Shown here piece by piece: positions 24,622-54,492 of a stretch of 64,000 bases of DNA. A program made the translations under genes and the position numbers. The stretch comes from Minisyncoccota bacterium. Lineage in GTDB: Bacteria; Patescibacteriota; Minisyncoccia; Phycocordibacterales; SBAW01. How positions within the stretch are numbered: the first letter of the stretch is position 1; each line of letters starts with the position of its first letter. The DNA is taken from the NCBI GenBank assembly GCA_035546615.1, contig DASZWM010000003.1:92902-156901 (forward strand). The letters are read 5' to 3'. The notes beneath the pieces were generated by a model. The model had not been told where the DNA came from, did not search any database, and was given only the letters and a program-made list of their open reading frames with translations.

Positions 24622-24694
24622 GGGCGTGTAGCTCAGTTGGTAGAGCAGCCGACTTATACTCGGCCGGTCCCAGGTTCGATCCCTGGCGCGCCCA
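24622..24694 (+). tRNA. tRNA-Ile with anticodon UAU (decodes AUA)
   Basis: Manual cloverleaf: acceptor GGGCGUG/CGCGCCC, D-arm GCUC/GAGC, anticodon stem GCCGA/UCGGC, loop CUUAUAC (U33, anticodon UAU, A37), T-loop GGUUCGAUCC. Confidence 0.7.
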
Positions 24695-24768
24695 CAAAAT
24701 ACAGAAACACCTGCCCTGCGGCAGGTTTTGTGCTACTGTTGTGCGGGTTCATTAACAGGGAGGGCGCG

Positions 24769-41965: not shown

Positions 41966-43237
41966 TTAGTACTCGCGGATGGAAATCTGCGCATCTATGC
42001 GGCGCGCAAGATCGAGGATTACCGAAACGACGATGAGGAGCGCGGTGCCGCCGAGCGCGAGCGTCGAGATGCCGGTGACGTACTGCATGAATATAGGCAG
42101 GACCGCAATGATAGCCAGGAAGAGCGCGCCCACGAACGTGATGCGCGTGATTATCTTCGCCAAGTGCTCTGCGGTGGAGCCGCCCGGGCGTACGCCCGGA
42201 ATGAACGCGCCGTTCTTCTGGAGGTTCTCCGAGATCTGGTTAGGGTCGAACGTGACGGCGGTGTAGAAGTAGGTAAAGAGGAACACGAAGACGAAGTAGA
42301 GGCTGCCGTACAGGAGCAGGTTCTGGAACGCGCCCAGAATAGAGGATGAAATGGCGAGCAGGACCGCATTGCTTGAAGTGGCGAAGAAGCTCGCGAACAT
42401 CTGCGGGATGAGGAGCAGGGACAATGCGAAGATGATCGGAATGACCCCGGCCTGGTTGAGGCGAAGCGGAAGATAGGTGGAGGCGCCGCCGAAGAACTTC
42501 ATGCCGCGCACGCGCTTGGCATAAGTAACCGGCACCGGACGCTCCGCTTCGCTCACGGTAACGACCGCCGCGATGATGGCGATAGCCGCAGCGAGGAAGG
42601 CCGCATATACGGGGATCTGCGCCGCATCGAACGAGAACAGCGCCTGGCTGATGTCCTGCGGAAGGCGCGACACGATGCCTGCGAAGATGATAAGCGAAAC
42701 GCCGTTGCCTAGGCCGAATTCCGAGATGAGCTCGCCTATCCACATGAGAAGCACCGAGCCCGCGGTAATGACAAGCAGGTTCACGAGGAACTGCATTGGG
42801 GAAAGCGCGCCCAGCACGCCCTGGCGCTCAAGTATCAAAAGGAAGCTGATGCCCTGCGTTACCGCTATCGGAACGCTCAGCATGCGCGTGTACTGGCTGA
42901 AGCGCTGGCGGCCCGCCTCCCCCTCCTCCTGATACAGCTGCTTGAGCTTCGGCACCATCATTGTAAGGAGCTGCATGATGATGGATGCGGTGATGTAGGG
43001 AGCCACGCCCAGCATCACGATGGAAAGGCTCGAGAGGCCGCCGCCGGAGAAGAGGTTGAGCAGGCCGAAGAACTGGTTATTGGAAAAGAAAAGCTCCAGC
43101 TGAGCCGGATTGACGCCGGGGATCGGAATAGCGGCAAGCACGCGGAAGACCGCGAGCGCGCCGAGCACGAAGAGGAGCCGGTTGCGCAACGACTTGTCTG
43201 CGAGGAGGAGGGTAAGCCGTTCTATGAATGCATTCAT
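41966..43237 (-). CDS. secY: Preprotein translocase subunit SecY
   Basis: 423 aa, 10-TM, conserved SecY segments. Confidence 0.9.
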   Translation of the reverse strand: MNAFIERLTLLLADKSLRNRLLFVLGALAVFRVLAAIPIPGVNPAQLELFFSNNQFFGLLNLFSGGGLSSLSIVMLGVAPYITASIIMQLLTMMVPKLKQLYQEEGEAGRQRFSQYTRMLSVPIAVTQGISFLLILERQGVLGALSPMQFLVNLLVITAGSVLLMWIGELISEFGLGNGVSLIIFAGIVSRLPQDISQALFSFDAAQIPVYAAFLAAAIAIIAAVVTVSEAERPVPVTYAKRVRGMKFFGGASTYLPLRLNQAGVIPIIFALSLLLIPQMFASFFATSSNAVLLAISSSILGAFQNLLLYGSLYFVFVFLFTYFYTAVTFDPNQISENLQKNGAFIPGVRPGGSTAEHLAKIITRITFVGALFLAIIAVLPIFMQYVTGISTLALGGTALLIVVSVILDLARRIDAQISIREY

Positions 43238-43243
43238 GGGTGT

Positions 43244-43675
43244 TTATGCGCTGACGGAACCGCCAGCCTTCTCTATCTTAGCGCGAGCCGAGCCGGAAAC
43301 CGAGCATCCGGATATGGTGAGCTTCTTCGTGAGCTCTCCGTCGCCGAGGATCTTGACGACGCCTGTCTCGCGGACCGCGCCGCGCTCGATGAGGACTTTC
43401 GGAGTGATAGTGTCGCCCGGCGCGAACATCTTCTCCAGAAGCGCCACGTTAACGACGGACGGCTTGTCCTTGATGCTGCGCAAACCGCCTATGCCGCGCC
43501 CGCGGAGCTTCGGAAGCTTCTTAAGCTGCTCGCGAATGGCGGGCATGATCGAGTGGCCCGCGCGGGCCTTCTGGCCCTTGGTGCCGCGTCCGGAGGTCTT
43601 GCCCCGGCCGCCGCCGCGTCCGACGCGCTTCTCGCTTTTGTTGGGGGTTGCCCGCTTGAGTTCGTGGAGTTGCAT
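43244..43675 (-). CDS. rplO: 50S ribosomal protein L15
   Basis: RVGRGGGRGKTSGRGTKGQKARAG. Confidence 0.9.
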   Translation of the reverse strand: MQLHELKRATPNKSEKRVGRGGGRGKTSGRGTKGQKARAGHSIMPAIREQLKKLPKLRGRGIGGLRSIKDKPSVVNVALLEKMFAPGDTITPKVLIERGAVRETGVVKILGDGELTKKLTISGCSVSGSARAKIEKAGGSVSA

Positions 43676-43714
43676 AAATTTGAGTCTCTTTTTGATTGTT
43701 AAATCATTAAAATG

Positions 43715-44338
43715 CTACGCTTTCAATGATTTAAGAGCCTCTACCGCAGCGCGGGCATTGTTAAGGCCGTTCTTGCTGCCGGAGTGGACCTTCGCAACGA
43801 TGTTCGTGATGCCGGCAAGCTCAAGCACAGGACGAACCGAGGAGCCTGCGACAAGGCCGCGGCCGCGAGCCGGCATGAGGGATACGCGCGAGGCGTTGAA
43901 CTTGGCGTTCACATCATGGGCAATGGAAGAATCCTTGGTGAGCGACACGGTTATCATGTGCTTCTTGGCGTCGCGCACCGCCTTGTCTATCGCGAGGGTG
44001 GTGTCCCCTGCCTTGCCGACGCCGACGCCGACGCGGCCCTTCTTATTGCCGATGATTATGGAAACGCTGAAGGAGAACCGGCGGCCGCCCGCGATAACGC
44101 GGGATACGCGGCGGATGTTTATCATGCGCTGGTCGAACTCGGTCTTGCGCTCGGGGCGAGGGCCACGTGCGCCCGGACGGCCTCCGGGGCGACCGCCCTG
44201 GCGGCCGCGGCGGTCACCGCCGGCGCGAGGAGCGCGTGCAGGCGCCTCAGATGCAGCCACAGGAGCAGCAGCTTCAGCCGCAACCTCTGGGGCCGCTTCT
44301 GTATTGGTGTCTATTACTTTTTCTTCAGGGGTATCCAT
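43715..44338 (-). CDS. rpsE: 30S ribosomal protein S5 with ~65-aa Ala/Arg/Gly-rich N-terminal extension
   Basis: Core RMINIRRVSRVIAGGRRFSFSVSIIIGNKKGRVGVGVGKA matches S5; followed directly by rplO (no L30 gene). Confidence 0.85.
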   Translation of the reverse strand: MDTPEEKVIDTNTEAAPEVAAEAAAPVAASEAPARAPRAGGDRRGRQGGRPGGRPGARGPRPERKTEFDQRMINIRRVSRVIAGGRRFSFSVSIIIGNKKGRVGVGVGKAGDTTLAIDKAVRDAKKHMITVSLTKDSSIAHDVNAKFNASRVSLMPARGRGLVAGSSVRPVLELAGITNIVAKVHSGSKNGLNNARAAVEALKSLKA

Positions 44339-44343
44339 ATAGT

Positions 44344-44691
44344 TTAAAATTTGAGGCCTCCTTCGCGGGCTGCGGTCGCAAGCACCGCTACGCGTCCGGT
44401 GTAGCGGAAGCCGCCGCGATCGAACACTACTTCGTTAATGCCCGCCGCCGAGGCCGCCTTGGCGAGCGCCATGCCGAGCGCTTTTGCCGCATCGGTCTTC
44501 TTGGCCTTCATGCCCTTCGTGCTGCCGGCTACGATGGTCTTCCCTGCCTCGTCATCGATGACCTGCGCGTGCAGATAGCGGTTGGACTTGTACACGGCCA
44601 GGCGCGGGCGCGCGGCGGTGCCCATGACGCGGGCACGAATGCGCGCATGGCGGCGTGAGCGGCTTATAGTTTTAGTAATGCTTTTGTTCAT
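44344..44691 (-). CDS. rplR: 50S ribosomal protein L18
   Basis: typical L18 sequence. Confidence 0.9.
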   Translation of the reverse strand: MNKSITKTISRSRRHARIRARVMGTAARPRLAVYKSNRYLHAQVIDDEAGKTIVAGSTKGMKAKKTDAAKALGMALAKAASAAGINEVVFDRGGFRYTGRVAVLATAAREGGLKF

Positions 44692-44726
44692 ATTGGTCTT
44701 TTAGATCTTTCCTCGCAAGCTCGGAA

Positions 44727-45260
44727 CTACGCGGCCTTCTTGCCCTGCTTGCGGCGGATAACCTCGCCGTCGTAGCGGATGCCCTTGCCCTTGTACGGCT
44801 CCGGAACCTTGAGCGCGCGTACATTAGCCGCGAACTGGCCGACGAGCTCCTTATCGAAACCGGTTATGGAAAGTGCGCCCTTCTCTACCGTTACGGTAAG
44901 GCCTTCCGGGATGCTCATCTTGACCGGGTGCGAGAAGCCGAGGCTGAGGTTCAAGGTCTTCCCTGCGACATCCCACTTGTAGCCGACGCCCTCGATAGCA
45001 AGCTTCTTGGTGAAGCCGGTGCCGACGCCCTCTATCATGTTGCGGATGTGCGAAGCATAGCTGCCGACAAGCGCGCGAGCCTCGAGCGTGTCCTTCTTCA
45101 TCGCGACCTGCACGCCCTCAGGAACCTTCTCGATGGAAATGAGGCGGTGGCCCGGGCGCATGAGCGTGCCCTTCGGTCCCTTTACGGTAACCAAATCGCC
45201 CGAAATGGTTATTTCGGTCTTGGCCGGGACGGCTATTGGGCGTTTAGCTAGGCGTGACAT
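44727..45260 (-). CDS. rplF: 50S ribosomal protein L6
   Basis: typical L6 sequence. Confidence 0.9.
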   Translation of the reverse strand: MSRLAKRPIAVPAKTEITISGDLVTVKGPKGTLMRPGHRLISIEKVPEGVQVAMKKDTLEARALVGSYASHIRNMIEGVGTGFTKKLAIEGVGYKWDVAGKTLNLSLGFSHPVKMSIPEGLTVTVEKGALSITGFDKELVGQFAANVRALKVPEPYKGKGIRYDGEVIRRKQGKKAA

Positions 45261-45291
45261 ACAGGTTTTATGGAAGACGGGTTACACATGA

Positions 45292-45678
45292 TTACCAGAT
45301 TTCGAACAGGGCCTCGCCGCCGACGCGCTTTGCGCGCGCTTCCTTGCCGGTGAGGATGCCTTCAGGCGTCGAAAGCACGAGGAGGCCGTGGCCGCGCTTG
45401 ACCGGCTGCACGTCGCGCACGCCCATGTACATGCGGCGCGAGGGCTTCGAGATGCGCTTGGCGCCGCCGATAGCCGGACGGCCGCCCTTGTAGACGAGCA
45501 TGATGGAAAGGAGATTGTTCTTCGCGCGCTTATCTACCGCGCCGATGTAGCCCTCGCGCTCGAGCACTTCGGAAAGGGCGCGGGTCATCTTGGATGCGGG
45601 CACGACAACGGACTCCTTGCGCGCCATGGAGGCGTTGCGGATGCGGACGAGAAAATCTGCGATAGGGTCAGTTACCAT
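45292..45678 (-). CDS. rpsH: 30S ribosomal protein S8
   Basis: typical S8 sequence. Confidence 0.9.
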   Translation of the reverse strand: MVTDPIADFLVRIRNASMARKESVVVPASKMTRALSEVLEREGYIGAVDKRAKNNLLSIMLVYKGGRPAIGGAKRISKPSRRMYMGVRDVQPVKRGHGLLVLSTPEGILTGKEARAKRVGGEALFEIW

Positions 45679-45686
45679 ACGATTGA

Positions 45687-45872
45687 TTACCAGGATGACT
45701 TGCGGACGCCCGGGATGAGGCCCTCATTAGCCGCCTCGCGGAAGCAGGCGCGGCACATGCCGAAGTCGCGCATGAAGGAGCGCTTGCGGCCGCAGCGGAA
45801 GCAACGGTTAACAACCCTCGATTTGAATTTCGGAGGGCGGTTTGAGCGCGCGACTGTAGACTTTTTTGCCAT
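45687..45872 (-). CDS. rpsN: 30S ribosomal protein S14 type Z (zinc-binding)
   Basis: 61 aa, CFRCGRK...CRAC. Confidence 0.85.
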
Positions 45873-46002
45873 TGTGTAATTAGGTCCCCCGGACCGGCCG
45901 GGGGTACTCCCCTTACCTAGGAAGTTATGATTCTGCCGGTTTGCCTCGCCTTGCGACTAAGCGGCACCTAACAGAAAAAAGGAGCCCTGATGGGCTCGGC
46001 AA

Positions 46003-46031
46003 AATATACGCGATATGGGCATATAAGTCAA
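46003..46031 (-). promoter_or_regulatory. Sigma-70-type promoter TTGACT-N17-TATATT driving rpsN and downstream genes
   Basis: minus-sense ggatTTGACTtatatgcccatatcgcgTATATTttgcc, ~125 nt upstream of rpsN ATG; leader contains two hairpins (45981-45998, 45886-45904). Confidence 0.5.
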
Positions 46032-46101
46032 ATCCGGCTTGACAGGGAGCCGAGATATAGAAAACTGAGGGTAGTTGGTCGGCCCGTTGGAGGAAACTGC
46101 C

Positions 46102-46359
46102 ATGGTTGCACTGGCGCCTCCTGAACGGAGGCCGTTGTCGAAAATACGCGTATTCTTCGCCCTGATCGGATTAATAGGCATGACGCTTGTTATCCTCGGA
46201 GGCGCGGCGCTGGCGTTAGACGGCTTGGGAATGTTCTTCATCCACCATCTTCCAGCCGATAGGGCGGCCGGCATCACCGGGATGGGCATCATCCTTGTGG
46301 CAATGGCGATGGGGGTGTTCAACCTTCTGCGAAGAAAAATCAAAGGGCCCGCGGGATGA
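46102..46359 (+). CDS. Small (86 aa) two-TM membrane protein inserted antisense between rpsN and rplE
   Basis: GGAGGA SD 6 nt before ATG 46102; MVALAPPERRPLSKIRVFFALIGLIGMTLVILGGAALAL...; ends at terminator. Confidence 0.4.
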   Translation: MVALAPPERRPLSKIRVFFALIGLIGMTLVILGGAALALDGLGMFFIHHLPADRAAGITGMGIILVAMAMGVFNLLRRKIKGPAG

Positions 46360-46388
46360 CCATCTCCCGCGGGCCCTTCGTGATTTTA
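46344..46388. terminator. Bidirectional rho-independent terminator immediately after rplE
   Basis: agggcccgcggg-atgaccatctc-ccgcgggccct with T-runs on both sides. Confidence 0.6.
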
Positions 46389-46392
46389 AAAA

Positions 46393-46929
46393 CTATTTCT
46401 TGAATGGGAAGCCGAGGTGTGTGAGATATGCTTTCGCTTCGTCCTTGTTCTTGGCGCCCGTCACAACCGTGACCGACATGCCGAAGACATCCTTAAGCTC
46501 CTCGTCGGCGGTCTCCGGGAATACCGTGTTCTCCTTGATACCAAGCGTGTAGTTGCCCATCTCGTCGATAGCGGAAGTCTCGATACCCTTGAAGTCCTTG
46601 GTGCGAGGAAGCGCGATGTGCACGAGGCGGTTGAGGAAATCCTCAGCGCGCTTGCCGCGCATCGTTACCTGGTAGCCTATCTTGTCGCCCACGCGGGTCT
46701 TGAAGGTGGCGATGGCCTTCTTGGCGGCGCGGGGAGCCGGCTTCTGTCCGGTTATCTTCTCCAGCCGATTGGCGATGAGCTCGATCTTGTTCTTATCTTT
46801 GGTTGAGCCGGTACCAACGGAAATAACTACCTTCTCCACCTTGGGGGTCTGCATGACATTCACCCACCCAAGAGTGCCCTTGAGCTCCGCGAATGCCGTC
46901 TTCTGCTGTTCTTGAATGAGTTTAGCCAT
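46393..46929 (-). CDS. rplE: 50S ribosomal protein L5
   Basis: typical L5 sequence. Confidence 0.9.
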   Translation of the reverse strand: MAKLIQEQQKTAFAELKGTLGWVNVMQTPKVEKVVISVGTGSTKDKNKIELIANRLEKITGQKPAPRAAKKAIATFKTRVGDKIGYQVTMRGKRAEDFLNRLVHIALPRTKDFKGIETSAIDEMGNYTLGIKENTVFPETADEELKDVFGMSVTVVTGAKNKDEAKAYLTHLGFPFKK

Positions 46930-46937
46930 GGTGGTGG

Positions 46938-47029
46938 ATTATTATCTAGCGAGCGAGAGAAATGAAAACTTGTTTTCATTTCCGAGCGAGCGACGATAAT
47001 ATAAATTTTTCATAAAATTTCTATTTCTT
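46938..47029 (-). repeat. 92-nt AT-rich intercistronic element (copy 1) between rplX stop and rplE start; contains perfect 11-bp hairpin
   Basis: 88/92 nt identical to 49598-49689; gaaatgaaaac-tt-gttttcatttc stem flanked by direct AGCGAGCGA repeats. Confidence 0.6.
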
Positions 47030-47248
47030 CGGACCGACGTTGCTGGCGTGTATCGGGAAATGCTTGTCGATTATCTGGCCCTTCTGCCCTTCGCGGCGGG
47101 GCTTCTGGTGCTTCTTGCGCATGCCCACACCCTCAACGAGCACGAGGCCAAGCTTCGGGAAGGTCTTTACGACCCTGCCGCTCTTGCCCTTCTCGTTGCC
47201 CGAGAGGACCGTTACCGTATCGCCTTTTTTTACATGCATGGTATTCAT
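47021..47248 (-). CDS. rplX: 50S ribosomal protein L24
   Basis: KOW motif MHVKKGDTVTVLSGNEKGKSGRV. Confidence 0.85.
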   Translation of the reverse strand: MNTMHVKKGDTVTVLSGNEKGKSGRVVKTFPKLGLVLVEGVGMRKKHQKPRREGQKGQIIDKHFPIHASNVGPKK

Positions 47249-47265
47249 ACGTTTCTTTTTTATTG

Positions 47266-47289
47266 GTGTAAAAATTAAAATTTTTACAC
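47266..47289 (-). promoter_or_regulatory. AT-rich hairpin spanning rplN stop codon, 18 nt upstream of rplX start
   Basis: ggtgtaaaaa-ttaaaa-tttttacacc (9-bp stem). Confidence 0.35.
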
Positions 47290-47664
47290 AACCTCCGGAG
47301 CGCGGGAAATGATGGTCTGGTAGCCGAGCTCCTGGAGCTCGCGCGGGATAGGGCCGAAGATGCGGCCTGCCTTAGGCTCCTTCTTGTCCTTGCCGGCGGT
47401 GTCCAGTATGACGACCGCGTTCTCGTCGAAGCGGATGTACGAGCCGTCCTTGCGGCGCATGGCCTTCTTCTGGCGCACGACGACGGCGCGCAGGATGTCC
47501 TTCTTCTTAACGGCTTTGCGCGGCTCGGCCGACTGCACCGAAATGACCACGAGCTCGCCGATTTCCGCGTAGCGCTTCTTGGAACCGCCAAGCACTTTGA
47601 AAACGCGGCCGATCTTGGCGCCGGAATTATCTGCAACAACAACGAGTGAGCGGTCTTGTATCAT
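47284..47664 (-). CDS. rplN: 50S ribosomal protein L14
   Basis: typical L14 sequence. Confidence 0.9.
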   Translation of the reverse strand: MIQDRSLVVVADNSGAKIGRVFKVLGGSKKRYAEIGELVVISVQSAEPRKAVKKKDILRAVVVRQKKAMRRKDGSYIRFDENAVVILDTAGKDKKEPKAGRIFGPIPRELQELGYQTIISRAPEVV

Positions 47665-47665
47665 A

Positions 47666-47914
47666 TTAGTTTTCGAACACTATCTCGAAGGACTTGAGCT
47701 TCGACATAGGGCGGCACGAGCGGATGGTAACCGCCTCCCCTTCCTGCGCGCGGTTGCCCGGATTGTGGGCGTGGTAGCGCTTGGTCGACTTCATGTACTT
47801 CTTGTACTTCGGATGCTTCACGTAGCGGGATACGGCAACTACCGCCGTGTCCTGCATTTTAGCCGAGACTACGGTGCCGCGAAGCGTCTTCTTATGTACG
47901 GTTTTGGTTTCCAT
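47666..47914 (-). CDS. rpsQ: 30S ribosomal protein S17
   Basis: typical S17 sequence. Confidence 0.85.
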   Translation of the reverse strand: METKTVHKKTLRGTVVSAKMQDTAVVAVSRYVKHPKYKKYMKSTKRYHAHNPGNRAQEGEAVTIRSCRPMSKLKSFEIVFEN

Positions 47915-47915
47915 A

Positions 47916-48119
47916 TTATTTCTTTGCCGCGGCCTTCTGCGCGGCGAGCTCTGTCATGGCGCGCGCGACGTCTTTGCGGAGCGTGCGGGCGAGCTTTACA
48001 TTGCGATTTTTACTACCGGAAGCGGAAAAGCGCAAGCCGCGGAGCTCTTCGCGCTTATCGGCAACGATCTTGAGAAGATCGTCCTGGTTATGGTTCTTGA
48101 GCGAGTTCTTCTTGGTCAT
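47916..48119 (-). CDS. rpmC: 50S ribosomal protein L29
   Basis: 67-aa protein starting MTKKNSLKNHNQDDLLKIVADKREELRGLRF; ORF-track N-terminal extension rejected (overlaps rplP). Confidence 0.75.
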   Translation of the reverse strand: MTKKNSLKNHNQDDLLKIVADKREELRGLRFSASGSKNRNVKLARTLRKDVARAMTELAAQKAAAKK

Positions 48120-48120
48120 A

Positions 48121-48540
48121 TTAGTGTCTGGTGACCACCTTGGTCTTGAGCGGCAGCTTCTTCCCTGCCTTCTCGAGCGTCTCCTTGGCGAGGGGTCCGG
48201 CAACGCCGTCCACTTCGAACAGTACGCGGCCCGGCCATACTTCCACCTCGTAGCCGACCGGATCGCCCTTACCCTTGCCGAGCTTCACTTCCGGCGGCTT
48301 CTGGGTGAACGGCTTGTCGGGGAATACGCGCAGCCACATCTTGCCGGTCTTGCCGAGGCTGCGGACCACCACTTTGCGGGCGCTCTCGAGCTGGTTGGAG
48401 CGCAGGCGGGCGTGGGTCATCGCCTTGAGGCCGTGGGAACCAAAGGCAACGGTAATGCCGCGGGTAGCGACTTTGCCCTTCTTGGCATTGTGGCGCATCG
48501 TGTGCCACTTCCTGAATTTTACTTTTTTGGGGAATAACAT
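48121..48540 (-). CDS. rplP: 50S ribosomal protein L16
   Basis: typical L16 sequence. Confidence 0.9.
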   Translation of the reverse strand: MLFPKKVKFRKWHTMRHNAKKGKVATRGITVAFGSHGLKAMTHARLRSNQLESARKVVVRSLGKTGKMWLRVFPDKPFTQKPPEVKLGKGKGDPVGYEVEVWPGRVLFEVDGVAGPLAKETLEKAGKKLPLKTKVVTRH

Positions 48541-48567
48541 GGTGTTGATTCAATCCTCGGCACTTTT

Positions 48568-49248
48568 TTATTTGTCTTTGCCGCCATCCTTGCCGGTGGC
48601 TGCAAAGACCTCGCCGCGGTATATCCAAACCTTGACGCCGATGACGCCGAGCGGAAGGTTCGCGCGCTCCTTGGCATAGTCGATATCCGAACGGAACGTC
48701 TGGAGCGGGATGCGGCCCTTCTTGAGCTCCTCGGTGCGGGACATGGAGCCGCCGCCGAGCATGCCGGAAACGCCGATGCGCACTCCCTTCACGTCGCGGT
48801 TGGCCATCACCTTCTCGATGGTCTGCTTGAGCACGCGGCGGAACGGCATGCGCTTCTCGAGGCTCTCAACCACCATGTATGCGACTATTGCCGCGCTGGA
48901 CTCAGGGCTGCGAATTTCCTCGATATCGAGCTTGATCTCAGGGACCTGGAGCTTGCGCTTCTTAAGGAAGGCGACGATCTTGTCCTTGAGCTTGGTCGAG
49001 CCCTCGCCGGAGCGGCCGATGATGATGCCCGGGCGCGAGGTCTTGATGATAACGCGCAGCTGCTTTTCGTTGCGCTCTATCTCCAGGGCGCCGATGTACA
49101 TGCCGCGAAGCTCCTTCTGCAAAAATTCGCGCAGGAGGATATCGGCCTTGAGGTACTGCTGGTACTTGGCGCCGGTAGCGAACCAGCGGTGACGCCAGTC
49201 ACGCAGTATTCCGAGCCTATGGGCAAATGGGTTTACGACTTTAGACAT
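48568..49248 (-). CDS. rpsC: 30S ribosomal protein S3
   Basis: KH domain, typical S3. Confidence 0.9.
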   Translation of the reverse strand: MSKVVNPFAHRLGILRDWRHRWFATGAKYQQYLKADILLREFLQKELRGMYIGALEIERNEKQLRVIIKTSRPGIIIGRSGEGSTKLKDKIVAFLKKRKLQVPEIKLDIEEIRSPESSAAIVAYMVVESLEKRMPFRRVLKQTIEKVMANRDVKGVRIGVSGMLGGGSMSRTEELKKGRIPLQTFRSDIDYAKERANLPLGVIGVKVWIYRGEVFAATGKDGGKDK

Positions 49249-49252
49249 ATAG

Positions 49253-49594
49253 TTATTGGGCTTTCGCGGCCTTGCGGGAAAGGGCGAGGGTGATATGACT
49301 GGACTTCTTGCGTATCGGGGACGAGCTGCCGCGGGCGCGGGGCATGGAGCGCTTGAAGACGATGCCGCCGTTCACCTGGATGCTTGAAATGTAGAGCTCG
49401 GAGGCCGCAACATCCTTGCTGTTTGCAATAGCGGACTTAACCAGCTTTGCCATCGGGTCGGAGCCGCGCTTCGGGAGCGTGGCAAGAAGCGCGAGCGCGC
49501 GCTCGACGGACTTGCCGCGGATGAGGTCGGCAATGAGGCGCACCTTGCGGGGCGACTGGCGGTAGTTCTTGAGTGATGCGGTTGCGTCTGACAT
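49253..49594 (-). CDS. rplV: 50S ribosomal protein L22
   Basis: typical L22 sequence. Confidence 0.9.
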   Translation of the reverse strand: MSDATASLKNYRQSPRKVRLIADLIRGKSVERALALLATLPKRGSDPMAKLVKSAIANSKDVAASELYISSIQVNGGIVFKRSMPRARGSSSPIRKKSSHITLALSRKAAKAQ

Positions 49595-49597
49595 ATA

Positions 49598-49689
49598 ATT
49601 ATTATCTAGCGAGTGAGAGAAATGAAAACTTGTTTTCTTTTCCGAGCGAGCGACGATAATATAAATTATTCATATAATTTCTATTTCTT
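49598..49689 (-). repeat. 92-nt AT-rich intercistronic element (copy 2) between rpsS stop and rplV start
   Basis: 96% identical to 46938-47029; begins at KK* stop of upstream gene, ends 3 nt before ATG. Confidence 0.6.
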
Positions 49690-50052
49690 GCCTGCCGGAG
49701 CGCCAGCCTTGCCGCCCGCCGCATCAGCCGCAGCCTTGGCCGCGCCCGCTGCCGCGATCTCGGCCTCCTTGGCCTTGGTCTCCATCTCCTTCTGCATCTT
49801 GCCGCCGTGGCGCTGGAACTTCTTCGTGGGAGAGAACTCGCCCAGGCGGTGCCCGACCATGTCCTCGCTCACGAGCACCTCAACGTGCGTCTTGCCGTTG
49901 TGGACGCCGAACTTGAAGCCGACCATTTCGGGGGCTATCTGGCTGCGGCGCGCCCACGTCTTAATAAGCTCAGATCCTTGAGCTTTTTTGCCCTCAATCT
50001 TCTTGAGGAGCTTTTCGTCTACGTATGGTCCTTTTTTGAGGCTGCGTGCCAT
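49681..50052 (-). CDS. rpsS: 30S ribosomal protein S19 with Ala/Lys-rich C-terminal extension
   Basis: S19 core [13 protein letters not shown]...HNGKTHVEV; ~35-aa tail. Confidence 0.85.
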
Positions 50053-50122
50053 ATTTCCAAAATTAAAGCCCCTGTCCGTTTGAGCAGAGAGCGCTCAAAC
50101 CTTGCGACACGGGAGTACAGGG

Positions 50123-50151
50123 ATAGTACAGGATAAGGCTGGGATAGTCAA
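50123..50151 (-). promoter_or_regulatory. Sigma-70-type promoter TTGACT-N17-TACTAT for rpsS operon segment
   Basis: minus-sense aatTTGACTatcccagccttatcctgTACTATccc; leader hairpin gtttgagc-gctctct-gctcaaac (50079-50101). Confidence 0.5.
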
Positions 50152-50196
50152 ATTGTGCTATAGTCGGCCGCGGATTCCCCAACCTAGGAGGTTGCT

Positions 50197-50763
50197 GTGA
50201 TAGCGTCAGCCAATATCGTACAGGCGGAGTACTTTCACGTGGACGGAGGGAGGACTCATTCGCTCGATGTTCTGCGTAATCAAATACGGGAGCGTGTGAA
50301 AGACAATCTCGAGCTAGCCCTTCGGACGGGACAGGAAGTCTCGCCCGGCATCAAGACATGCGTCCGGTTCTGCGATAATGACGAATCGGTTACGGCACGC
50401 GTGCGAGAAGCCGAGCAGCTCGAGAAAAAATATGGCGCGACGCTCGATGCCCTTGGCCGGCCTCGGAACGGTCGCCTTATGCGCTGGTGGTATCGGCGCC
50501 AGCTGCGGAATATCGGCGACAGTAAGAGGCGCGCGAAAGAGACCGCCATAGAACATTCCATATCGGCGCTTTTGCGCGCGATCAAGGCCAAGGAAAAGAT
50601 CGCTGTCGAGAAAAACGACCATTCGTATCGCTTTCTCAACGACAACGAATCGCTCGAACTTGCTGAAAGGGTGAGCGCCGCGAAGAGCGGGTGGATATTT
50701 GTCTTCAAGCCAAATAAAGACCTGTTGGCGGACAGAAACACTATAGTAACCCGTATCATGTAA
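50197..50763 (+). CDS. Hypothetical 188-aa protein inserted antisense between rpsS and rplB (GTG start)
   Basis: AGGAGG SD 6 nt before GTG; extended -10 TGcTATAGT at 50156-50164; own strong terminator. Confidence 0.5.
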   Translation: MIASANIVQAEYFHVDGGRTHSLDVLRNQIRERVKDNLELALRTGQEVSPGIKTCVRFCDNDESVTARVREAEQLEKKYGATLDALGRPRNGRLMRWWYRRQLRNIGDSKRRAKETAIEHSISALLRAIKAKEKIAVEKNDHSYRFLNDNESLELAERVSAAKSGWIFVFKPNKDLLADRNTIVTRIM

Positions 50764-50770
50764 CGAAAAT

Positions 50771-50810
50771 CGCCCCGGCATTTTGCCGGGGCGTTCTCTT
50801 TTTTGTGTTT
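50771..50810. terminator. Rho-independent terminator (bidirectional) after 188-aa gene and after rplB
   Basis: cgccccggc-attt-tgccggggcg + ttctcttttttgtgtttgattttt. Confidence 0.65.
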
Positions 50811-50815
50811 GATTT

Positions 50816-51664
50816 TTACTGCTGTGCTCCGCGCTTGCCGACTTTGCGGCGGGAAACAATGAGGTAGTTGGAGTACTTCTTCGGGCGGCGAGACTTCTGG
50901 CCCTTGCCGGTGGGCTTGCCCCACATGGACTTCGCGCGACGCGTACCGCGGCCCTGGCGGCCTTCGCCTCCGCCGTACGGGTGGTCAACCGGGTTCATTG
51001 CAGTGCCGCGAACGGTCGGGCGGATGCCGAGCCAGCGGCTGCGGCCTGCTTTGCCGAGGTTCATGAGCTTGTTCTCAGGGTTGGAAACTTCGCCGAGGGT
51101 TGCCCAGCAGGTCTCAAGCACCTTGCGCACCTCCGAAGACGGCATCTTAAGGTCTACATAGCCGCCGTCGCGCGCGATAACCTCAATGTGCGTGCCTGCC
51201 GCGCGGCCAAGCTTGGCGCCGTTGCCCGGCTTTATCTCGACGTTGTATACGAATGCGCCGATCGGAACATTCTTAAGCGGCATACGATTGCCCGGAGTGG
51301 CTGCAGCCTCAGTCGCGGTCTCGATAACGTCCCCTACCCGGGCGGTCTGCGGGAGAAGCGCGTAGCGGCGCTCGCCGTCGCGGTACACCAGCACGCCGAT
51401 GAAGCCAGAACGGTTCGGATCATACTCGACGGTCTCTACCTTGGCCGGAACCTGCTTGTCGTAGAAAAAGTCCACCTCGCGGAACATGCGCTTGTGGCCG
51501 CCGCCCTTGTGGCGCACCGAAATGCGGCCCGCGTTGTCGCGGCCGGAACCGCGGCGCCCGCCCTTCGTAAGCGCCTTGTGCGGCTCGTTGGTTGTGAGCT
51601 TGCCGCGGAAGGTTACCGTGGTCATGCCGCGGCGCGATTTAGTATATGGTCGGTAGTGTTTCAT
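50816..51664 (-). CDS. rplB: 50S ribosomal protein L2
   Basis: typical L2 sequence. Confidence 0.9.
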   Translation of the reverse strand: MKHYRPYTKSRRGMTTVTFRGKLTTNEPHKALTKGGRRGSGRDNAGRISVRHKGGGHKRMFREVDFFYDKQVPAKVETVEYDPNRSGFIGVLVYRDGERRYALLPQTARVGDVIETATEAAATPGNRMPLKNVPIGAFVYNVEIKPGNGAKLGRAAGTHIEVIARDGGYVDLKMPSSEVRKVLETCWATLGEVSNPENKLMNLGKAGRSRWLGIRPTVRGTAMNPVDHPYGGGEGRQGRGTRRAKSMWGKPTGKGQKSRRPKKYSNYLIVSRRKVGKRGAQQ

Positions 51665-51695
51665 AAAATCTCTTTTTTAATTGGTCTAAATAAAT

Positions 51696-51983
51696 TTAGA
51701 CCAGCTCGATGGTCTCCCCCTTCTTGAGGAACACGTATGCCTTCTTTCCTGCGCTAGTTTTGCCCTTGCGGTTAGTACGGCGGGTGAGCACTGCCTTGCG
51801 GGGAACAGCGACAATGCGTACGAAGCGAGGAGTGACCTTGTAGACGGTCTGCACCGCATCCGCAATCTCCTTCTTGTTGGCATCCATCGCCACGTTGAAG
51901 ACATAGACGCTATGCTCAGAAAGGTATGCGCCTTTTTCCGTGATGCGGGGCGAGAGCAGTATGTGGGTGTGAGAGCGTTTCAT
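51696..51983 (-). CDS. rplW: 50S ribosomal protein L23
   Basis: typical L23 sequence. Confidence 0.85.
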   Translation of the reverse strand: MKRSHTHILLSPRITEKGAYLSEHSVYVFNVAMDANKKEIADAVQTVYKVTPRFVRIVAVPRKAVLTRRTNRKGKTSAGKKAYVFLKKGETIELV

Positions 51984-51984
51984 A

Positions 51985-52704
51985 TTATTTCTTTACCACC
52001 TTCTTAGCGCCCAAGGTCTCCATAGCGGCGGCCGGCTCTGCAATGATGAGGTACTTGCTGGAGAGGACCGATACCGGGTTCAGGTTGCGCACCTCCACCA
52101 TCTCGACATTACCGAAGTTCTGGAAGCTCTTCTGCGTTGCAACATGCACGCGCGGAATAGCGATAAGCGCGGCGTTCTTTGCCTTCGAAAGGCCGGAGAA
52201 GGTCTTGCCGAGCGCTGCAAGGAGTATCTTGGCCTGTGCGGTCTTCGGGCTGCTCAACTCAAGCGAGTCTATAAAGAGCACCTCCCCGTCCTTGTACTTG
52301 CGGGAAAGGGTCACGAGGAGCGCCTTCTGGCGGGCCTGGCGGTTTATCTTCTGGGCGTAGATCTTCTCGTTGCGAGGACCGTGGGTAACGCCGCCGCCCT
52401 TCCATATAGGAGAGCGCGAGGAGCCATGGCGGGCGCGGCCGGTGCCCTTTTGCTTCCAAGGCTTCTTGCCGCCGCCGCGAACCTCGCCCCGGTCTTTAGT
52501 ATGAGCGACCGGGCCGCGAGCATTGGCCTGCATCGCGGTAACCACCTGGTGCACGAGGTCGGCATTCCAAGGAAGTCCGAAGATGTTCTCCGGAAGCATG
52601 AAGGTGCCGGCCGACTTGCCGTCCTTGTTGAAGACGGAAGCCTCCATCTTGTTGCCGGCCGGAGCGGCCTTCTCTACTTTCTTTGTTTTGGTAGTGGTAG
52701 CCAT
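51985..52704 (-). CDS. rplD: 50S ribosomal protein L4
   Basis: typical L4 sequence. Confidence 0.9.
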   Translation of the reverse strand: MATTTKTKKVEKAAPAGNKMEASVFNKDGKSAGTFMLPENIFGLPWNADLVHQVVTAMQANARGPVAHTKDRGEVRGGGKKPWKQKGTGRARHGSSRSPIWKGGGVTHGPRNEKIYAQKINRQARQKALLVTLSRKYKDGEVLFIDSLELSSPKTAQAKILLAALGKTFSGLSKAKNAALIAIPRVHVATQKSFQNFGNVEMVEVRNLNPVSVLSSKYLIIAEPAAAMETLGAKKVVKK

Positions 52705-52709
52705 AAAAA

Positions 52710-53342
52710 TTATGATGTTGCAGCAGTGCCGCGGATCTCAACTACCGTACCGCGGCGGCCGGGAACGGCGCCTGCGAGAACGAGCTCGTTGGTCTCGGGA
52801 AGTATCTGGAGTATCGGAAGGTTGCGGACGGTTACGCGGTCAGAACCCATGCGGCCCGCCATGCGCATGCCCTTGGCAACGCGGCCTCCCGCGCGGCCGC
52901 CTGAGCCGCCTATGGAGCCCGGTGCGCGCTCGGAGTGCTTCTGGCCGTGGGAGCGAGGACCGCCGTGGAAGCCGTGGCGCTTAACGACGCCCTGGAAGCC
53001 GCGGCCCTTGGAAATAGCCGAAACGGTTACCTTCTCCCCTACTGCGAATGCGGAGAGGTCTACGACTGCGCCGACCTCAACATCTGCCGCGCCGCCCTTG
53101 AGATTGATCTCGCGGAAATGGCGGAGCGCTTTGCCCTTCGTGTGGCCCATCTGCGCCTTGCTGACGTGCTTGGGGGTCGTCTCGACGCCGCCGATCTGGA
53201 CTGCGGAATAGCCGTCCTTCTCCACCGTCTTTATCTGGGTTACCAGGTTAGGAGCGGCGTTTATGACGGTAGCGGCAAAAGCCTGTCCCTCTTCGGTATA
53301 GACAGTAGTCATTTTGCCCTTTGTTCCAAGGATGAATTTCAT
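52710..53342 (-). CDS. rplC: 50S ribosomal protein L3
   Basis: typical L3 sequence. Confidence 0.9.
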   Translation of the reverse strand: MKFILGTKGKMTTVYTEEGQAFAATVINAAPNLVTQIKTVEKDGYSAVQIGGVETTPKHVSKAQMGHTKGKALRHFREINLKGGAADVEVGAVVDLSAFAVGEKVTVSAISKGRGFQGVVKRHGFHGGPRSHGQKHSERAPGSIGGSGGRAGGRVAKGMRMAGRMGSDRVTVRNLPILQILPETNELVLAGAVPGRRGTVVEIRGTAATS

Positions 53343-53359
53343 AACTTAGCGTAGTGAGT

Positions 53360-53383
53360 GAGAAGAAAATGTATTTTCTTCTC
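53360..53383 (-). promoter_or_regulatory. Leader hairpin (11-bp stem) 17 nt upstream of rplC start
   Basis: gagaagaaaat-gt-attttcttctc flanked by AGTGAGTGAG / GGAGCGAC. Confidence 0.4.
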
Positions 53384-53493
53384 CGAACGGAGCGACAGTT
53401 ATATCGGGGGATTTTCCCGCTATGTTGTCTGTAGGTCCCTCTGCTTGGCCCAAGGCCTGGGACGCGGATCAACTCTTATGTAGAGTCCCAAAG

Positions 53494-53522
53494 AATATAC
53501 ATCAGAGCCTTAATTTATGCAA
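53494..53522 (-). promoter_or_regulatory. Sigma-70-type promoter TTGCAT-N17-TATATT for rplC-rplD-rplW-rplB
   Basis: minus-sense TTGCATaaattaaggctctgatgTATATTcttt at edge of AT-rich island. Confidence 0.55.
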
Positions 53523-53544
53523 ATAGTGATGATAAACTTAGTAT

Positions 53545-53961
53545 ATGAACATTTTTGAGATAATTGGATTTATATTTCTTATAAGTGCCTTTTTAATGGG
53601 ATTTGGTTATAATTTATTTACAGATTTCCTTTGGTTTAAATGGCTGCATAAGTGGGTGCCTGAGCAATTCCGAGAGCGTAAAAACATTCAAAAACCTTTT
53701 TCTCTTATGGCTTCTGAATATTTCAAAAATAACTTCTTTGCATTTACTAGTCCCTCAAATCCTCCTGATCCAATGTTTCAAAGGCCTCTTACCCTTCTAC
53801 TTCCTATGATCTTAACCGTTGTTAGCTTGATGATAGCTGGCATATCATTGGTTGAGGCTCCATTTTTTGAATGTCTTATAGGCGTAATTGTTTTTCTCGC
53901 TATTAGTCTGTTCTTTATAGTACGTCTAGCAAAAAGACAGATCAAAAACCATACTTGGTAG
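53545..53961 (+). CDS. Hypothetical 138-aa membrane protein encoded in AT-rich island
   Basis: AT-rich codon usage distinct from host; 3-4 TM helices; hairpin gcctcatc-aaaaat-gatgaggc downstream. Confidence 0.5.
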   Translation: MNIFEIIGFIFLISAFLMGFGYNLFTDFLWFKWLHKWVPEQFRERKNIQKPFSLMASEYFKNNFFAFTSPSNPPDPMFQRPLTLLLPMILTVVSLMIAGISLVEAPFFECLIGVIVFLAISLFFIVRLAKRQIKNHTW

Positions 53962-54210
53962 AAAATAAGGGCAAGAATAAAGCCTCATCAAAAATGATGA
54001 GGCGGATGGGGAGGGAGAGGAGGGTGGGGAAAAAAGAGAAGAAAGAACTAGATGGAATGATGGAGTGGGAGAGCGTGTAAAAACAGAGGCTCAGGAAGGA
54101 TGCGAGAGTACCGTAAGCGAGCGCGCTATATGGTTTCCCATCGCAGACCTCCGCTGTCAGTCAGTCCGTTTATGAGAACCGGGCACGACGCAAAAGGTTA
54201 CATACACGAA

Positions 54211-54234
54211 AAGGCCTCCGCGCGGAGGCCTTTT
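54211..54234. terminator. Palindromic GC hairpin with flanking A/T runs (possible bidirectional terminator, end of candidate sRNA)
   Basis: gaaaaggcctccg-cgcggaggccttttcg. Confidence 0.4.
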
Positions 54235-54420
54235 CGTTCCAATTTCTTTGCTCAGCTTGCAGAGTGTGCCCTGTGGGCTGCAAACGGAACAAAAAACCCG
54301 ACCTATAGTTCGGGCGAAATTAACGCCTATGTGTCGCGACTAAAGGACAAAACCGTACTGAGCGTCTTGTTCTAAGTATATGAATTGCTCATCTTTAGTC
54401 AATAAAATTTTCCACAAAAA

Positions 54421-54448
54421 CAAAAACTCCCGCCGAAGCGGGAGTTTT
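54421..54448 (-). terminator. Rho-independent terminator directly downstream of rpsJ
   Basis: minus-sense aaaaactcccgc-ttcg-gcgggagtttttgtttttgtgg. Confidence 0.6.
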
Positions 54449-54492
54449 TCGAATGCCATTCTTTTTGATTTGTAAAAATGTCCTAGCTAACG

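Follow-up and report, generated by a model that had tools for sequence, protein, structure and literature searches.

In Escherichia coli, ribosomal protein S8 is the repressor of genes homologous to those considered here (PMC3616713; PMC10931766). The spc operator on which it acts mimics helix 21 of 16S rRNA and overlaps the start of rplE within a longer operon. S8 recognizes the base triples A595-(A596-U644) and (G597-C643)-U641 plus an invariant extruded A642, and the 596-644 pair covaries, being A-U in E. coli and C-G in Thermus (PMC4176348). This operator structure is confined to Gammaproteobacteria (PMC3616713), and a 2024 review calls spc regulation in other bacteria unknown (PMC10931766). 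The 20 candidate ribosomal leaders of Eckert and Weinberg 2020 include none for S8, for rpsN, or for bacteria of the candidate phyla radiation (CPR). Here we analyzed a stretch of 64,000 nucleotides (nt), the window, from contig DASZWM010000003.1 of a Minisyncoccota bacterium, in which rpsN is preceded by its own promoter and by a structured 5' leader with a putative S8 site. Our reading of the sequence comparisons, to which we assign a probability of roughly 0.6, is that the space between rplE and rpsN combines a conserved transcription-unit boundary, a tenant gene, and an S8 feedback leader. Taken jointly, the comparisons make it very likely that the rplE|rpsN junction is an old, conserved unit boundary of Paceibacteria that gathers variable genes, that the rpsN promoter and leader form a conserved family, and that the small gene found there is real, rapidly evolving, and confined to a narrow clade. 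For S8 as the ligand of the leader, the balance tilts slightly in favor.

The ribosomal-protein cluster of the window lies on the minus strand and runs from tuf and rpsJ to rplO and secY. In the open reading frame (ORF) table, rplE (46393-46929; Pfam Ribosomal_L5 and L5_C, E 1e-30) is the final gene of the unit rpsS...rplE. A spacer of 520 nt (45873-46392), the size given in a preliminary description of this DNA, separates it from rpsN (45687-45872), which codes for a zinc-type S14 of 61 amino acids (aa) (Pfam Ribosomal_S14, E 5e-21) and opens the unit rpsN...secY. The second gene of that unit, rpsH (45292-45678, from the same table), encodes S8, the proposed ligand; it follows rpsN after 8 nt on the same strand, and the terminator scan found no terminator between the two. 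Read on the operon strand, the spacer opens with a very stable hairpin, continues with an ORF of the opposite strand, and ends with a promoter followed by the leader. A Logan assembly made independently from a Sequence Read Archive run (L203) shows 100% identity to window positions 45955-46989 (1,035 nt), and the arrangement is therefore not an assembly artifact; run SRR12170516 carries the identical sequence. Exact-sequence look-ups gave no match for the S14 of the window and only the identical contig for its L5. For comparison, 80 loci of other species were fetched via the L5 protein and their neighboring genes were placed by tblastn; both rplE and rpsN could be located in 62 loci (61 relatives plus the window), which are the basis of the rplE|rpsN counts.

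The rpsN unit appears to start from a conserved sigma-70-type promoter, TTGACT-17-TATATT (46003-46031, minus strand), which matches at 10 of 12 positions and lies where the preliminary description had placed it. No site in the 11 kb scanned matches better; 9 were found there and 4.2 expected. The -35/-10 pair with 17-nt spacing recurs in 19 of the 22 leaders of the same type, hereafter class 1, so that hexamers at 17 ± 1 nt and a conserved position both point to a sigma-70 promoter. Because the A of AGCCC sits 7 to 8 nt past the -10 box, the first leader hairpin, P0, begins at the predicted +1. From there (A45996) to the AUG (45872) the leader measures 124 nt, in line with the claimed structured leader of about 125 nt, and it is predicted to fold into four hairpins (-51.7 kcal/mol, z = -2.6; 0 of 200 shuffles as good).

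P0, (G)AGCCC-AUCA-GGGCU(C) (45982-45997, this and all following leader elements on the minus strand), is 92% paired in an alignment of 23 distinct leader sequences. It is directly followed by a C-U6 tract (45975-45981), of whose eight columns seven are invariant in the 23 sequences and the remaining one is kept in 22. The last two U's belong to P1, in which 45972-45976 pair with 45931-45935 (UUCUG/CAGAA). P1 and the GCAA-capped P2 (45943-45965) both covary and enclose an internal loop with an invariant core; together they form a helix spanning 45931-45976. The P3 hairpin (45906-45925; ACUUCCU/GGGGAGU with an AGG-containing loop) formed in all 18 members folded, with arms that differ from member to member (ACUCCC/GGGAGU, ACCCC/GGGGU, UUCCGC/GCGGGA, GCC/GGC); it was assessed by folding sequences singly, as the MAFFT alignment is not structure-aware and was unusable for pair counts. 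P4 (45886-45904; CCCCCGG-CCGGU-CCGGGGG) is optional and found in a subset of relatives, whose stems differ while the loop C(C/U)AGU is kept in L001, L004, L018, L162, and L197; L029 has AGCAGU.

Starting a transcript at its first nucleotide with a hairpin is a property of the 5'-terminal stabilizer stem-loops of the E. coli ompA and Bacillus subtilis aprE leaders, and P0 probably has the same stabilizing role. It differs from them in the invariant, terminator-like U6 that follows. Indeed, the terminator scan flags P0 as a 6-bp stem with 5 G-C pairs followed by CTTTTTTCTG, and C-U6 is almost fully invariant even though only its last two U's are needed for P1. P0 and U6 might thus be a promoter-proximal terminator or attenuator instead, which might shield the rpsN unit from transcription running on from cargo genes or sense uridine triphosphate or growth rate, and which would be compatible with an S8 operator downstream. 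We consider this quite unlikely, since the stem is short (5 to 6 bp) and nearly all members have the hairpin at the predicted +1, where it would stop transcripts of the unit itself as well. A stabilizer followed by a U6 tract remains our preferred view of the 5' end.

Between the spacer of the window and its relatives, nucleotide similarity is seen only in the ~140 nt next to rpsN. Sixteen relatives have the promoter and a leader of matching design, and a metagenome scan with CCTTTTTTCTGNNAGGT added four more; that scan returned 121 pattern matches, of which 117 were chance matches and 4 were real leaders. In L006, about 100 nt upstream of rpsN, the stretch in which a class-1 leader would be expected is masked by N, ending exactly at ...AGAATCATAAC. 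We built a covariance model, R1, of the 5' 77 positions of the leader. In the window it matched from P0 through the conserved linker AAUCAUAAC (45924-46000; 98.4 bits, E 5e-24), the sole match in 64 kb. In the window plus the 80 genome loci it gave 18 matches (17 loci and the window), two of them in loci absent from model building, and it also matched the metagenome contigs L204 and L205. In total, 24 sequences scored 54 to 99 bits, and no other match in 777 kb had an E value below 0.6. Each genome had a single match, in every case immediately before rpsN or at the end of a contig on which rpsN should come next. In the 23 distinct sequences 96.5% of the cells were paired, compared to 31 to 49% when the partners were slid, and nine pairs carry double changes, compared to 1.5 in shuffles.

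The preliminary description had proposed looking in this leader for an S8- or S14-responsive structure, and an S8-type recognition loop does appear to be present. The core of the internal loop places A45969, G45968, G45967, and U45966 opposite A45942, A45941, A45940, C45939, and C45938, which we aligned with 16S positions 595-598 and 640-644, A45940 being the equivalent of A642. The corresponding helix 21 of E. coli (MG1655, L081) reads UUA595A596G597U598C...G639A640U641A642C643U644GG. The leader loop satisfies every rule of PMC4176348, with 596-644 as a G-C pair: it has an unpaired purine at 595, a 598-640 pair, and two bulged positions on the 3' side. In the window, the two U-G wobble pairs below the helix-21 loop recur as well. 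The core AGGU/ANACC is invariant in 23 of 23 sequences, N being free (U in 8, A in 12, and G in 3), and the adjacent pairs vary or covary. Apart from the U tract, no block other than these nine core positions is unchanged throughout the 23. With a strict S8-motif descriptor, 21 of the 62 regions upstream of rpsN gave a match, while 0.03 matches per region were expected from the rest of the loci.

A further class of rpsN leader, different in sequence and built as GGAGCAAGUUACG...CGUAAUACUGUUCC, also carries the S8 motif (L019, L037, L070, and L080). It contains AAGUU...AAUACU, that is, a core of the E. coli type (AAGU/AUACU); in L037 the equivalent of A595 lies 48 nt upstream of the start codon. 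Among more distant relatives, rpsN is preceded by helices of different sequence or by a minimal leader made of a +1 hairpin, a U-rich tract, and the AUG, devoid of the internal-loop helix (e.g., L014, L020, L025, L053, L060, and L075). What we call class 2, a common and conserved type of leader in more distant Paceibacteria, consists of a 5' hairpin and GAUUGGAAGC-hairpin-GCUAACCAAUC, whose internal loop is AA/UAA, followed by a U-rich tract and the AUG (L030, L032, L033, L038, L040, L042, L044, L046, L047, L051, L055, L056, L058, L059, L061-L063, L066, L068, L073, and L078).

The helix that follows U6 would thus copy, in its internal loop, the 16S helix-21 site recognized by S8. S8 present in excess of free 16S rRNA would most likely bind this loop and repress the translation of rpsN together with that of the downstream genes, which are closely spaced and probably coupled to it in translation. 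The net effect would be an autogenous feedback operator like that of spc in E. coli, located in the 5' leader before rpsN.

Several observations weigh against this proposal. The strict S8 motif is low in information, with 12 chance matches in 128 kb (both strands of the window), so that it is position and invariance that carry the case for S8. The loop precedes the AUG by 97 nt (42 to 121 nt across class 1), too far for a simple occlusion of the start site, and the leader neither overlaps nor abuts the start that it would repress. A pairing of U6 with rpsN codons 2 to 4 (Lys codons) is predicted in the window but in only about 7 of 21 members. The class-2 leaders keep GG...AACC and fail the strict S8 motif. 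The mimicry was judged against E. coli 16S rRNA and the published rules rather than against the 16S rRNA of the clade itself, of which none was found in the 64-kb window or the fetched loci. Finally, the class-1 sequences are fairly closely related, and some of their invariance could reflect shared ancestry.

These points leave room for a leader that is real but whose loop is not an S8 site, serving another protein of the unit (S14, L6, L18, S5, or L15) or none at all, with a role in stability or ribosome loading. The low information of the motif, its distance from the AUG, the class-2 leaders without it, and the occurrence of the +1 hairpin and U-rich tract alone in minimal leaders would all fit such an element. 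It would not explain why invariance is confined to the nine positions of the S8 core, with the position that is free in rRNA (641) being free here too, nor why an independent class of leaders reproduces the E. coli core. S8 is moreover the known regulator of the homologous E. coli genes (PMC3616713; PMC10931766). We consider a ligand other than S8, or none, unlikely, if a serious contender, and S8 is the ligand that we retain.

Compared with the spc operator of E. coli, the leader is similarly carried on the mRNA of the S8 operon, rpsH being the gene directly after rpsN, and precedes the same block of genes (rpsN, rpsH, rplF...). Both offer a helix with an asymmetric loop fitting 595-598/640-644, the equivalent of A642, and the G597-C643 pair. 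In contrast to the E. coli operator, which sits at the rplE start, the leader lies 42 to 121 nt before rpsN behind its own promoter, has G-C at 596-644, and includes additional modules (the +1 hairpin, U6, P3, and P4). No sequence homology to the spc operator was detected and no Rfam family matched it. By analogy, the leader would work like the spc operator yet stand outside that family, from which it departs in its position relative to the start and in its lack of homology to the E. coli structure. It can rather be viewed as a putative new variant of the ribosomal-protein leaders that mimic rRNA. In being a conserved, structured, clade-restricted 5' untranslated region it resembles the L1, L20, S15, S4, and L10 leaders and those of Eckert and Weinberg 2020, and as for the S15 and L31 leaders, several structural classes serve the same gene across lineages. 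In an Rfam 15 scan no family reached its gathering score; the sub-threshold matches were attributed to chance, His_leader and ar14 matching the hairpin behind rplE and COG2908 matching 25 nt at E 2.7. Our literature searches found no described leader for rpsN, for S8, or for CPR bacteria.

CPR bacteria have reduced ribosomes, and to our knowledge nothing is known of how they balance ribosomal proteins against rRNA. If our interpretation is correct, the rpsN leader would extend S8 feedback for the first time beyond Gammaproteobacteria, and CPR would gain its first described ribosomal-protein leader. The rpsN leader is the element of this locus most worth following up, and a concrete candidate, testable in vitro, for the regulation of spc genes outside Gammaproteobacteria (PMC10931766).

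The preliminary description had seen rplE and rpsN as split by the small gene and the promoter as new; neither idea held. The rplE|rpsN spacer measures 80 to 4,849 nt in 62 of 62 loci, and the rplB|rpsS spacer is also open (71 to 1,764 nt), whereas the S19|L22, L24|L5, and S14|S8 junctions are mostly below 30 nt. A terminator-like hairpin follows the rplE stop within 110 nt in 41 of 62 loci, and one follows rplB in 27 of 38. The cargo of the spacers varies from zero to eight ORFs on either strand, nearly all of them unrelated (156 singletons in clustering), and transmembrane (TM) or signal segments are predicted in about a quarter of the ORFs of the rplE|rpsN spacers (37 of 142). The promoter and leader are kept in relatives that have other cargo or none, such as L007 with its spacer of 178 nt. 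Because the junction is open in all loci and the promoter and leader persist without the ORF, the boundary is older than the small gene. The site is permissive, and the small gene is one of its lineage-specific tenants.

A recent insertion of the small antisense gene, bringing its own terminator and a new promoter and thereby breaking a continuous rplE-rpsN operon, would account for the lack of nucleotide similarity between 46032-46392 (terminator and ORF) and most relatives. It could also account for a difference in translation signals. The Shine-Dalgarno (SD) motif is absent from all 20 ribosomal-protein and secY genes at window positions 41966-53342, whose upstream regions are A/U-rich, and, unlike these, the antisense cargo genes at 46102 and 50197 both have one. 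The anti-SD motif has been lost in part of the Parcubacteria (PMC9297842). A survey of SD motifs across the whole window was uninformative, as its high G+C content gives many spurious ORFs. The insertion scenario is nevertheless already contradicted by the open junction in 62 of 62 loci, by the promoter and leader conserved next to different cargo or none, and by the terminators after rplE in 41 of 62, and we regard it as very improbable. An old boundary with changing occupants is the interpretation we keep.

In the window, transcription of rpsS...rplE would end at a strong bidirectional intrinsic terminator (46331-46388, found by a scan of both strands). The presence of a strong GC hairpin behind rplE had been noted before and was borne out: its stem (46341-46380) begins 12 nt past the rplE stop and has 16 pairs, 12 of them G-C, around an 8-nt loop, and a 71-nt segment folds at -37.2 kcal/mol (z = -5.9; 0 of 200 shuffles as good). 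A G+C-rich stem-loop followed by a U-run is what is expected of an intrinsic terminator, and because a T-run follows on both strands, it is predicted to act in both directions. With its long G+C-rich palindrome, its flanking A- and T-runs, and its place where rplE and the small gene meet at their 3' ends, it resembles the bidirectional terminators of convergent genes. It differs from them in that one arm also codes: the 5' arm on the plus strand encodes the five C-terminal residues of the small protein (KGPAG) and its stop codon. A homologous stem, GGCCCGCG...CGCGGGCC, is found at the same place in L004 and L001, where the overlap of coding sequence and terminator is kept too.

The small gene (46102-46359, plus strand; annotated VHD55_01950) is antisense to the ribosomal-protein cluster and runs from an ATG at 46102 to a TGA at 46357-46359. 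An opposite-strand gene for a protein of 86 aa with two TM segments and a GGAGGA SD motif had been proposed; the gene, the SD motif (46089-46094, plus strand, 7 nt before the ATG), and the two hydrophobic segments in the hydropathy prediction stand, while the length is 85 aa. An in-frame TTG at 46075 would extend it to 94 aa. Its frame ranks first of six on a codon model trained on the window, and its G+C content at codon positions 1/2/3 is.60/.44/.67, compared to the genome mean of.62/.46/.72. A candidate weak promoter, TTGACA-16-AAAACT (46039-46066, plus strand), stands back-to-back with that of rpsN; it scores below the threshold of the promoter scan. The window, L204, L004, and L001 all retain the pattern TTGAC(A/T)-16/17-(A/G)A(A/G)A(C/T)T (TTGAAG in L001), and the SD motif is conserved in four genomes. 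The permissive space behind the terminator would thus hold a lineage-specific gene for a two-TM protein, read toward the terminator from a weak divergent promoter.

At first sight this ORF was an orphan: a word-indexed protein search matched only its own database entry, a hypothetical protein from a metagenome-assembled genome of Candidatus Paceibacterota, in line with a CPR origin of the window, and neither ORF clustering nor blastn with the spacer found a relative. An exhaustive HMMER search of 1.84 billion representatives overturned this with two homologues, P0004 (E 1e-8) and P0005 (E 7e-6). The DNA of the gene is too diverged for blastn, and the clustering had dropped the shorter homologue of L004. 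On two metagenome contigs, L204 and L205, P0004 lies antisense between rplE and rpsN/rpsH; P0005 comes from the L004 genome, where the gene call truncates an ORF of 77 aa; and the syntenic site is occupied in L204, L205, and L206. Common to these two and to the protein of the window are an N terminus MVA(L/W)APPE(R/G)R..SK.R.FFA, the first TM segment, and a loop F.xH.xPxDxAxGI(T/S)GxG; a second TM segment and a basic tail are further features that link the proteins of the window and L004. The dN/dS ratio is 0.34 between the window and L004 and 0.26 to 0.36 for other pairs, and the differences at codon positions 1/2/3 amount to 32/17/47. The proposed check on conservation in relatives thus came out in favor of the gene, which is kept in the nearest relatives under purifying selection, and synteny together with dN/dS supports its reality. 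A two-TM ORF in L001 is at the same place but barely alignable, and in a closer relative for which there are gene calls only, a 101-aa ORF occupies the position.

It could still be that the 85-aa ORF is not expressed as a protein and is a decaying or chance ORF of the spacer. The protein matched no Pfam family at E ≤ 1 and its best PHROG match (E 0.005) is a family of unknown function, its promoter has no clear -10 box, 8% of wrong-frame windows score equally on the codon model, and in L204/L205 the second TM segment is gone and the ORF extends into rplE. A mere spacer ORF would, on the other hand, hardly keep an N terminus and a loop motif in syntenic homologues, dN/dS ratios of 0.26 to 0.36, differences concentrated as 32/17/47, and an SD and promoter-like pattern in four genomes; we judge it improbable and hold to an expressed gene. 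The idea of a type I toxin was discarded, as such toxins usually have fewer than 60 aa, one TM segment, and an overlapping cis-antisense RNA as antitoxin, compared to 85 aa and two TM segments here, and the promoter scan found no opposite-strand promoter-like site within the ORF. A SecG-like identity was dropped for lack of a match.

More broadly, we tentatively propose that Paceibacteria cut the S10-spc supercluster into separately promoted units and have evolved independent S8-responsive rpsN operators, in at least two versions copying helix 21 (AGGU/ANACC here and AAGU/AUACU in other lineages), with a further covarying leader before rpsS and with boundary spaces that serve as landing pads for genes of small membrane or secreted proteins. 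Ribosomal-protein gene order, which is widely used as a phylogenetic and binning marker, has fixed break points throughout the clade, each with its own terminator and promoter. Lineage-specific small genes gather at these points, which matters for annotating CPR genomes, predicting their operons, and interpreting synteny in them. The small-protein family itself is a modest addition.

The layout of an open junction recurs at rplB|rpsS and, in the window, also at rpsJ|rplC. The rplB|rpsS spacer of 763 nt (50197-50793 region) contains a bidirectional terminator (50771-50793) and an antisense ORF of 188 aa with an SD motif. This ORF has one homologue, 66% identical, at the same site in a Joint Genome Institute contig, and no known family was found for it. 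Upstream of rpsS (50053-50151, minus strand) lie a second conserved promoter, TTGACT-17-TACTAT, and a structured leader in which 11 of 17 predicted pairs show compensatory changes among 11 sequences; it has no Rfam match and is a candidate ribosomal-protein leader of the rpsS...rplE unit. The rpsJ|rplC break (53343-54492, 1,150 nt) has a terminator (54449-54422, minus strand), promoter-like sites at 54402-54375 and 53523-53494 (minus strand), and an antisense, hydrophobic, low-G+C ORF of 138 aa (53545-53961), which may encode a multi-TM protein.

A 92-nt A+T-rich element occurs twice in the window in the operon sense, at 46938-47029 (rplX|rplE) and 49598-49689 (rpsS|rplV), the two copies being 96% identical. 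A copy 94% identical over 63 nt is found in L020 (454-516) between rplW and rplB, in a different species with 76% L5 identity, and the closest relative has junctions of 5 to 6 nt at both sites where the window has the element. It comprises a hairpin, GAAAUGAAAAC-AAG-UUUUCAUUUC, flanking direct repeats UCGCUCGCU, and two promoter-like hexamer pairs. It could be a mobile element resembling miniature inverted-repeat transposable elements or an intercistronic control or processing element.

Elsewhere in the cluster, S19 (49681-50052; 123 aa) ends in an Ala/Lys-rich tail of about 30 residues and S5 (43715-44338; 207 aa) begins with a low-complexity extension of about 50 residues. The gene rpmD (L30) is missing between rpsE and rplO, as expected for CPR. 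Outside the cluster, a tRNA-Ile gene with the anticodon TAT is found at 24622-24695, which is unusual for bacteria, as these normally decode AUA via a modified CAU anticodon.

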